A stretch of 16,737 nt of DNA from Escherichia coli (GTDB lineage: Bacteria > Pseudomonadota > Gammaproteobacteria > Enterobacterales > Enterobacteriaceae), in assembly GCF_003334385.1 (NCBI RefSeq), contig NZ_QOWN01000064.1; one strand, written 5' to 3'. Position 1 is the stretch's first letter, and each line of letters starts with the position of its first letter. Made by a program: the position numbers and the translations under genes. Of the stretch, positions 15,824 to 16,583 are shown one piece after another. The notes beneath the pieces were generated by a model. That model did not search any database. It was not told the origin of the DNA and saw only the letters and a program-made list of their open reading frames with translations.

Positions 15824-16084
15824 ATGGATTATCCAAATCTACCAAAACAAACTTTTGCTGATTTAATCGCACTCAGGCAAGCAGTCGTAGCTCTAATCAA
15901 CGTGTTGCCGGATGAGGAAAAGGAATTAGTTAAAGCAATTCTTAACAGAACTGCCGCCGATTTTTCATCATTCCCACTGACAGATGACCTTGCGGACCTT
16001 CCTGAATTAATTGCAGCGTCCGCCATTAAGCTTACTGAAGAGATTTACTCTCCTCAAAAGCCTTCACAAAATTCCTGCGAGTAA
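15824..16084 (+). CDS. Hypothetical 86-aa acidic protein encoded opposite to the late operon
   Basis: ATG at 15824 with GAGGTG 6 nt upstream; MDYPNLPKQTFADLIALRQAVVALINVLPDEEKELVKAILNRTAADFSSFPLTDDLADLPELIAASAIKLTEEIYSPQKPSQNSCE; followed within 20 nt by a strong intrinsic terminator. AT-rich codons (CTA, TTA, AGA, AGG), unlike neighbouring phage genes. No homolog recognised. Confidence 0.55.
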   Translation: MDYPNLPKQTFADLIALRQAVVALINVLPDEEKELVKAILNRTAADFSSFPLTDDLADLPELIAASAIKLTEEIYSPQKPSQNSCE

Positions 16085-16583
16085 CTTCAATGCAATAATC
16101 GTAAAACGCCGCGAACTGCTCATCGCGGCGTTTTTTTGCATCTTCAGAAGGCATCAGCGTCGACAGTTTTTTATTCAGTTCAACGACGCAATTCTCCAGT
16201 TTTTCAATGCGTGATTCGATATCATCTTTTTCTGACCGCAGTGTTGACGGCGGCATCTTCAGAGCATCAGTAATTCTTCCCGGTAGCTTTCCTTTGTAGG
16301 TTATCAACACATCCTGCGCCTCTAAAATTATGGGGCGCTTTTCCGGCAACGGTTCGTTCCCTTCACATAACCCGGCAGCAACATCCATGAAAAACTGCTT
16401 CGCCTGCTTTTTCGCCTCAGCTTCGTAAAACTCCAGCGTGGCACCTTCAGTACGGTCAAGACTAATCGCCACATATGGCAACAACAGTGACGGATACCCA
16501 CCAATTTCCAGTGCCACAGTAGCAGTAATCTTATCCGGGTAATTATTTATCCCTTTAACAACCAGTTTGTATTGTTTATTCAT
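16032..16583 (-). CDS. Hypothetical 183-aa protein inserted between holin and endolysin (C-terminal coiled-coil)
   Basis: ATG at 16581-16583 lies 4 nt after the holin stop. No TM segment or recognisable catalytic motif; C-terminal DDIESRIEKLENCVVELNKKLSTL is coiled-coil-like. Lower G+C than the structural genes. A gene at this position in some E. coli lambdoid prophages (a DUF1327 / YdfR-like protein) may be related, but I cannot confirm this from memory. Confidence 0.6.
   Translation of the reverse strand: MNKQYKLVVKGINNYPDKITATVALEIGGYPSLLLPYVAISLDRTEGATLEFYEAEAKKQAKQFFMDVAAGLCEGNEPLPEKRPIILEAQDVLITYKGKLPGRITDALKMPPSTLRSEKDDIESRIEKLENCVVELNKKLSTLMPSEDAKKRRDEQFAAFYDYCIEVTRRNFVKAFEESKSLQ
16104..16137 (+). 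terminator. Rho-independent terminator for the plus-strand 86-aa gene, embedded in the coding sequence of the convergent 183-aa gene
   Basis: ACGCCGCG-aactgctcat-CGCGGCGT (8-bp GC-rich stem, 16106-16113 / 16124-16131) followed by TTTTTTT (16131-16137). Confidence 0.6.

Follow-up and report, generated by a model that had tools for sequence, protein, structure and literature searches.

We analysed a 16,737-nucleotide (nt) stretch of Escherichia coli prophage DNA (contig NZ_QOWN01000064.1; hereafter the window), and in it an open reading frame (ORF) of 86 amino acids (aa), here called gene A, which runs on the plus strand against the late genes of a lambdoid lysis cassette. We consider it likely that gene A is a real accessory gene carried on a moron-type cassette, which lies antisense between the holin gene S and the endolysin gene R, takes the place of the C-terminal domain of a YdfR-family gene, and is equipped with a weak promoter of its own and a hairpin terminator. 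The features of the cassette and of its late-strand partner are as follows.

15824..16084, plus strand: gene A, 86-aa ORF of family phrog_2572, from the ATG at 15824 to the TAA at 16082-16084.
15815..15819, plus strand: Shine-Dalgarno (SD) sequence GAGGT, 4 nt before the ATG, read from the sequence.
16032..16583, minus strand: 183-aa late-strand ORF comprising a DUF1327 (YdfR) domain, then a disordered linker and then a helical segment (PF07041, phrog_2091).
16032..16084: tail-to-tail overlap of gene A and the late-strand ORF, 53 nt, from the ORF coordinates.
16103..16137, plus strand: hairpin of 12 base pairs (bp) with an 8-nt loop and a U-run, putative intrinsic terminator of gene A, from folding and conservation.
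15711..15735, plus strand: 5' edge motif ATGGATATTTATCAGGATTTATCGG with tandem ATTTATC, overlapping the R start codon on the other strand and near-invariant in three lineages.
15728..15756, plus strand: candidate sigma-70 promoter, -35 TTTATC (15728-15733), 17-nt spacer, -10 TATGTT (15751-15756), score 7/12.

The original prediction had described a plus-strand ORF of 86 codons with its own SD sequence, its 53-nt convergent overlap with the 183-aa ORF, and a terminator-type hairpin inside that ORF. All three were found in the present analysis, the hairpin as a 12-bp stem followed by U7.

Protein A matched the phrog_2572 hidden Markov model over its entire length (E 3.6e-50; residues 1-86 on profile positions 1-86 of 86), and its remote relatives P0019 and P0020 also matched this family, which is named only "hypothetical". 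In related E. coli loci, the Prokaryotic Genome Annotation Pipeline (PGAP) calls gene A as a coding sequence for a hypothetical protein, and the identical protein occurs on approximately 1000 contigs, never with a name. Exhaustive HMMER and profile searches yielded relatives of 89-93 aa with 41-58% identity from Salmonella and metagenomes, and relatives of this identity reside in prophages of both E. coli and Salmonella. No relative emerged when one genome per species was scanned, and a profile scan of IMG/VR revealed no further lineages. Across three lineages, the proportion of non-synonymous differences (pN) was 0.26-0.37 versus 0.46-0.70 for synonymous ones (pS), with synonymous sites near saturation, and 24 residues were invariant over 12 sequences in a pattern typical of helix cores. 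These comparisons indicate that gene A is a real protein-coding gene; the non-coding-like evolution that, according to the original prediction, would have refuted it was not seen between the lineages. The position of the SD sequence is equivalent in all lineages although the sequence itself differs (TAAGGA in the other lineages).

Sequence comparison further indicates that gene A travels on a mobile accessory unit of the moron type. The cassette spans ca. 430 nt (window ca. 15711-16140) and comprises the 5' motif, 5' untranslated region (5' UTR), SD sequence, ORF A, and hairpin. Its presence is patchy: it was found in 315 of 5426 complete E. coli genomes (ca. 6%), including Shiga toxin-producing and extraintestinal pathogenic strains, versus 4328 genomes in which the S-ydfR-R region was matched, and on 47 IMG/VR contigs. 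It is absent from the Qin prophage of K-12, where ydfR abuts rrrQ, and from loci carrying long forms of YdfR. Its base composition deviates, with a guanine-plus-cytosine (GC) fraction of 0.41-0.45 (15700-16150) versus 0.53-0.57 in R; in the neighbouring 3' part of the late ORF it is about as low. At the 3' boundary stands the predicted terminator structure, and the homology between lineages stops at this hairpin. Relatives of gene A were found in the S-R slot between holin and endolysin, between Rz (DUF2514) and the terminase small subunit gene in Salmonella prophages, and downstream of the Q antiterminator gene. In every lineage and context examined, gene A runs antisense to the late genes, and 53 or 59 nt of its 3' end are shared with a late-strand ORF that reads into it; the same layout of ORF, overlap, and hairpin recurs in divergent lineages.

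In Stx-type phages, the S-R slot is taken by other ORFs on the opposite strand. One encodes a 104/106-aa phrog_1853 protein (L002 1680-1994; L142 1549-1869); kinship of A with this cargo was rejected, as hhalign and BLASTP gave no similarity. Another, in Stx1 phages, is an unannotated 233-aa plus-strand ORF (L003 1121-1822), which overlaps an annotated 263-aa DUF1327 ORF by ca. 250 nt and had no Pfam or PHROG match. Salmonella prophages have a further small plus-strand ORF (47-52 aa; partly hydrophobic) between the A cassette and the gene for the terminase small subunit (L060 3633-3791; L056 1055-1198). An Rfam scan of the whole window matched no family.

The late-strand partner belongs to the YdfR family by its PF07041 domain (DUF1327/YdfR; residues 1-100, E 5.5e-41) and by its position between a class II holin gene and a lysozyme gene, and it matches phrog_2091 over the full length. 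YdfR of K-12 consists of the DUF1327 domain alone (103 aa), and the stop codon of its gene overlaps the rrrQ start. Relatives of 287/296 aa contain the DUF1327 domain, a helical segment, and a C-terminal domain of ca. 115 aa, with R directly following, and relatives of 186 and 218 aa contain the helical segment and the ca. 115-aa C-terminal domain without DUF1327. The window ORF has the helical segment, including KKRRDEQFAAFYDYC, in common with the long forms, and the DNA homology to them ends at ca. 16092, just beyond the stop codon of gene A. By this comparison, the A cassette stands in place of the C-terminal domain of a long YdfR-family gene, and the late ORF owes its last 19 codons (IEVTRRNFVKAFEESKSLQ) to cassette DNA read antisense. 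The PGAP label "missing C-terminus" for the partner in L004-L008 is consistent with truncation. Thus, the 183-aa gene, in the original prediction a late-operon partner of gene A, is better described as a long YdfR-family gene that lacks its C-terminal domain and reads into the cassette until the first stop codon. Because the cassette replaced that domain, the truncated late ORF runs through the hairpin and stops 53 nt inside gene A, and the overlap would therefore be a consequence of the insertion, not a purpose-built device.

The late frame stays open, with in-frame insertions or deletions of 84 and 42 nt in relatives, and the full-length family phrog_2091 exists, so the truncated protein is probably still made. 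AlphaFold2 predicted a three-stranded sheet with a helix, a disordered linker (74-111), and two helices (112-143 and 147-182) for the 183-aa protein (pLDDT 58), its tail being helical to the end. The late gene in the S-R slot is modular among the loci compared (L147 1489-2049; L142 900-1556; L081 1221-2084; L083 1501-2391; L166 960-1271). In phage PhiR5_1 and one E. coli chromosome (L001 and L004), an in-frame insertion of 84 nt (28 codons) at 16136/16137, directly past the T-run of the hairpin, gives a 211-aa protein, and STEC17-183 (L005) has a different in-frame linker and a 169-aa protein.

The hairpin consists of a left arm (AAAACGCCGCGA, 16103-16114), a loop (16115-16122), a right arm (TCGCGGCGTTTT, 16123-16134), and a T-run reaching 16137. 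With its core stem CGCCGCGA/UCGCGGCG and U7 at 16131-16137, it has the structure of a rho-independent terminator. The plus-strand RNA folded with -19.4 kcal/mol in 46 nt and -22.6 kcal/mol in 66 nt (z ca. -4.3 to -4.4), and none of 200 shuffled sequences was as stable; a simple terminator scanner missed the hairpin, probably by extending the stem into A/T pairs. The late ORF is translated across it (...DAKKRRDEQFAAFYDYC..., codons KKRRDEQFAAF), and the arms correspond to the RR (CGC CGC) and AA (GCG GCG) codons of the late frame. The original prediction had held that the stem must be tolerated as codons; the late frame does encode the hairpin, but this coding segment is also present in relatives without gene A.

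The 8-bp core was identical in the E. coli and Salmonella lineages although the surrounding synonymous sites are saturated. In the third lineage, T3, the stem is CGCCACC/GGTGGCG, reflecting a G-C to A-U and a G-C to C-G double change with -20.1 kcal/mol retained; these compensatory changes alter the late protein (RR to RH and AA to VA). A G-U stem variant changing R to H also occurs. Among 85 loci with the helical segment, hairpin stability tracked the presence of cargo on the opposite strand, whether A, the 106-aa phrog_1853 gene, or the unannotated 233-aa ORF, although the cargo-less loci represent few independent events. Where cargo was present, the stems had -12.4 to -20.1 kcal/mol, with U7-U8 in the E. 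coli forms. Long forms without cargo carried a central C-to-A mismatch (-7.6 kcal/mol, z -1.1, ca. 24 loci), one hairpin arm was deleted in cargo-less L083, and L081 had both the mismatch and a broken U-run. The core kept despite saturation, the compensatory changes in T3, and the association of stability with cargo argue that the hairpin structure has been selected in connection with the opposite-strand gene.

At the other end of the cassette, the motif ATG(G/T)ATATTTATCAGGnTTTATC marks the 5' edge in all lineages, including Salmonella loci without an adjacent R. The tandem ATTTATC-N3-nTTTATC (15713-15735) is found upstream of gene A in L056, L060, L068, L059, L064, and L065. At a relaxed threshold, TTTATC-17-TATGTT was the only promoter-like site at a homologous position in all eight loci compared from the three lineages, and its -35 element falls within the tandem motif. 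The motif could be a promoter or operator or belong to the initiation region of R, and it could be a protein-binding site. No conserved structure was found in the 5' UTR of gene A (consensus -3.5 kcal/mol, 6 pairs only). A plus-strand ORF of 15 codons (MDIYQDLSVPNPWIC, 15711-15758), whose ATG overlaps the R start codon on the other strand, precedes gene A, and the Salmonella cassettes contain an ORF of the same length (MYIYQALSALKLWLL) that ends at the aligned stop codon. Translation of the 15-codon ORF is doubtful because it has no SD sequence.

Taken together, the cassette may work as follows. Gene A would be transcribed on the plus strand from the weak conserved promoter in the 110 nt upstream and translated from its own SD sequence, which can be read in the DNA. 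The transcript would end at the GC-rich hairpin and U7 formed by the RR and AA codons of the late gene, a structure evident from folding, and termination there would spare ydfR and S an antisense transcript. In the lytic phase, by analogy with lambda, Q-modified late transcription would read through the hairpin from the other side, where only four U residues follow. The overlap would be a by-product of the insertion, kept since it lies inside the cassette.

Several observations weigh against this interpretation, the first of them on gene A itself. Among close E. coli copies, the ratio of non-synonymous to synonymous substitution rates (dN/dS) was ca. 0.57, not significantly below 1 (13 synonymous and 24 non-synonymous variable sites). 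The start codon is changed from ATG to ACG in 8 of 53 loci (L031, L033-L037, L040, and L055), L055 is also frameshifted by a 1-nt insertion, and one more locus (L053/L080) is interrupted by an insertion of ca. 1.26 kb, so gene A is dispensable and decaying in some cryptic prophages. These losses (ca. 17% of the loci), the dN/dS not significantly below 1, and the lack of any functional annotation found for A are what one would expect if the 86-aa ORF were non-functional, either an open frame in mobile non-coding or regulatory DNA or a decaying pseudogene. We regard this as very improbable, since the protein is conserved across lineages with saturated synonymous sites, its 24 invariant residues follow a helix-core pattern, the SD position is kept in all lineages although the sequence differs, the frame is intact in ca. 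83% of the 53 loci, and the three-helix model is confident over residues 10-50. One locus (L052) has an in-frame 9-nt deletion in gene A; the natural loss-of-function and altered alleles are ready-made comparators for phenotype tests.

On the hairpin, cargo-less L085 keeps a fairly good stem of the -14 kcal/mol type. The covariation comes from a single lineage (T3) and two pairs, and 31 of 500 shuffles reached the observed value. The U-run is strong only in the E. coli lineage, weak in Salmonella, and better on the late-sense strand in T3. The hairpin may not be the terminator of gene A: it could be incidental to the RR...AA codons, or it could serve the late mRNA, for example as a site of processing or stability or as a terminator that restrains read-through into R when Q is absent; the A transcript would then end at another place, for instance through Rho. 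Relatives without A have the sequence in a coding segment that they share with the window ORF. Two common stem substitutions within the lineage were seen, 16113 G to A (23 of 26 haplotypes) and a G to A of the L003 type; both are synonymous in the late frame, and both disrupt loop-proximal pairs and weaken the stem. Folded as late-sense RNA, the palindrome is more stable (-25.8 kcal/mol) and is followed by UUUU. However, the hairpin accompanies gene A across lineages and the rest of the late ORF does not, the compensatory changes in T3 alter the late protein, and the structure has decayed to background stability or been deleted in cargo-less long forms, in which the late mRNA would still need a late-sense function. 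In the E. coli lineage, moreover, the perfect stem with U7-U8 is on the A-sense strand. We consider a role other than termination of the A transcript quite unlikely.

The partner in Salmonella is a further point of this kind: it is a stand-alone 73-aa ORF with a strong AGGGGG SD sequence, its start overlaps the Rz stop codon (coupled), and its pN/pS was ca. 0.38 in the half outside the cassette. This would be expected if gene A and the late-ORF tail were a co-adapted two-gene module, in which the overlap and hairpin serve as a cis-antisense switch tuning lysis timing. By duplex formation or polymerase collision, lysogenic transcription of A would damp leaky S-ydfR-R expression and late transcription would shut A off, with the DUF1327 domain possibly helping. 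Such a module would also suit the 53/59-nt overlap, which keeps one late-strand reading frame in three lineages and at least three junction contexts, and the predicted helicity of the late-ORF tail to its end. YdfR of K-12 binds RNase E's catalytic domain and co-purifies with RNA (PMC13232886), which makes a connection at the RNA level imaginable and says nothing on this locus.

Against such a module, the partners are homologous between lineages only where they overlap the cassette, as passive read-in would give. BLASTP confined this homology to the final 34 residues, encoded from the hairpin onwards, and elsewhere pN was about equal to pS; a conserved 70-aa late-strand protein module travelling with A was rejected on this ground. 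The upstream parts are unrelated, being a DUF1327 fusion of 183 aa in the window, the 73-aa ORF that stands alone in Salmonella, and 144- and 243-aa ORFs in T3. The same frame at three junctions has a chance probability of ca. 0.1, and the overlapping tail of protein A is predicted to be disordered and is poorly conserved. We judge the co-adapted module, and with it the mutual antisense regulation suggested by the original prediction, to be unlikely; no result of the analysis favours such regulation specifically. We give slightly less credence to a selected cis-antisense switch, in which lysogenic A transcription and an RNA duplex with leaky late transcripts would shield the endolysin from premature expression, Q-driven transcription would silence A after induction, and DUF1327 might process the duplex.

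The 5' end gives two further points of this kind. The standard promoter scan (threshold 9/12) found no site upstream of gene A, and part of the ATTTATC motif also precedes R in L085, a locus without A. The autonomous expression originally proposed for gene A thus retains a promoter candidate that is conserved, but it is a weak one whose score of 7/12 lies below the scan threshold. We nevertheless retain the moron-type accessory gene as the likely reading of the locus.

From sequence and model, protein A is predicted to be a small acidic cytoplasmic three-helix protein. It contains 14 D/E versus 7 K/R residues (net charge ca. -7), and its AlphaFold2 model has helices at 8-27, 30-48, and 56-74 and a low-confidence or disordered tail at 75-86, on which the 53-nt overlap falls (mean pLDDT 68; confident over residues 10-50). 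No signal peptide or membrane segment was found, and the N-terminus MDYPNLPKQTFADL has neither a hydrophobic signal nor a Cys lipobox. Searches with protein A against Pfam (the single sequence and every family member), NCBIfam, PADLOC, a PDB sequence profile, and Foldseek with PDB and BFVD gave nothing significant, and PADLOC found no match to known defence systems for A or for the 183-aa and 73-aa partners. Matches to AcrIIC4 (E 0.33) and PsbQ (E 2.5) were dismissed as noise. The DUF1823 (PF08853) label in PhiR phage records was rejected, with an i-E of 0.042 and 14.5 bits over 30 residues only and none of 12 family members at E <= 0.001. The TPR-CHAT proteins P0021 and P0022 were not accepted as homologues: helices 1-2 of A match repeated TPR-like units in five to six stretches of each, a motif-level resemblance. 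A type I toxin was likewise discarded for this acidic, soluble protein without a transmembrane segment. A literature search using phrog ids, WP accessions, PhiR phages, ydfR, DUF1327, and DUF1823 found no mention of gene A; its one pertinent result was the interaction of K-12 YdfR with RNase E. As a guess, protein A may act in lysogeny by binding another protein, such as a host or phage target.

At its end, over 2.5 kb, the window carries the lambdoid lysis cassette of an E. coli prophage, encoded on the minus strand, and gene A is the sole convincing plus-strand gene of this stretch. The neighbouring lysis genes are as follows.

16588..16737, minus strand: 3' part of the class II holin gene S, running off the window end (phrog_9876 holin, E 2.6e-37; so annotated in related records).
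15179..15712, minus strand: endolysin (lysozyme) gene R, the downstream late gene (phrog_7 endolysin, E 1.9e-62; so annotated in related records).
14224..14697, minus strand: Rz, containing the Rz1-like ORF.

Two small ORFs lie between R and Rz on the minus strand, and terminase and head genes follow farther along on the same strand. An Rz1-like 61-aa ORF (14286-14471, minus strand) is embedded out of frame in Rz, the classical spanin arrangement. A 14-bp terminator-like hairpin with a T-run is located at 15056-15088 on the minus strand, ca. 90 nt past the endolysin stop codon, within the late operon and directly before a small ORF (14840-15055); Q-modified polymerase presumably transcribes past it.

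Databases already listed the product of gene A as a hypothetical protein. New are the delimitation of the cassette and of its three lineages, the recognition of the neighbour as an apparently truncated long YdfR form, and the evidence that a terminator-like hairpin, made of the neighbour's codons, is maintained with cargo. Gene A is carried by ca. 6% of complete E. coli genomes and by Salmonella prophages; it is a candidate for an accessory factor expressed during lysogeny, and a knockout would be worthwhile. The locus suggests how a moron can land inside a late gene, not between genes, and borrow that gene's codons as a putative terminator, while the truncated late gene gains a new C-terminal tail by overprinting. 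Two database corrections follow: the "DUF1823" label on protein A is unsupported and should be dropped, and the neighbouring "YdfR" ORF should be regarded as a long form that has been truncated and not as a complete gene. Should the antisense arrangement prove regulatory, lambdoid lysis timing would have a new control point; nothing computed here requires that.

Morons of lambdoid phages are autonomous promoter-gene-terminator units inserted in late operons, a concept developed by Hendrix, Juhala and colleagues. The A unit resembles them in its patchy presence among similar prophages, its GC content lower than that of R, its orientation opposite to the late operon, its terminator-type hairpin at the homology boundary, and its occurrence at several late-operon positions. 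Unlike them, the cassette is not cleanly intergenic and appears to have replaced the 3' part of a late gene, its putative terminator and its last 17 codons are translated on the other strand, and its promoter is only a weak candidate. The likeness to the lambda bor moron drawn in the original prediction is limited to the orientation opposite to the late genes next to the lysis cassette and, in the Salmonella relatives, to the position, since these sit at the bor site after Rz and before the terminase. It does not extend to the product: Bor is a secreted Bor/Iss lipoprotein, whereas protein A is acidic and helical, without a signal peptide or lipobox and without sequence or fold similarity to Bor, and the Lambda_Bor Pfam family was not matched even at E <= 10, so that a Bor/Iss identity was rejected.

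Bacterial transcriptome studies have described pairs of convergent genes with a common terminator hairpin that lies inside coding sequence or overlaps it. Gene A and the late ORF resemble such pairs in their tail-to-tail overlap and in having one GC-rich palindrome that is placed between an A-run and a T-run and can fold on both strands. They differ in that only gene A ends before the hairpin; translation of the late ORF continues across it, and Q antitermination is expected to make the late transcript insensitive to it. Finally, the 183-aa partner shares its DUF1327 domain and its S-R slot with YdfR of Qin, which is encoded between essQ and rrrQ, whereas the window form adds the linker and helical segment to the K-12 form and is without the C-terminal domain of the 287/296-aa forms.

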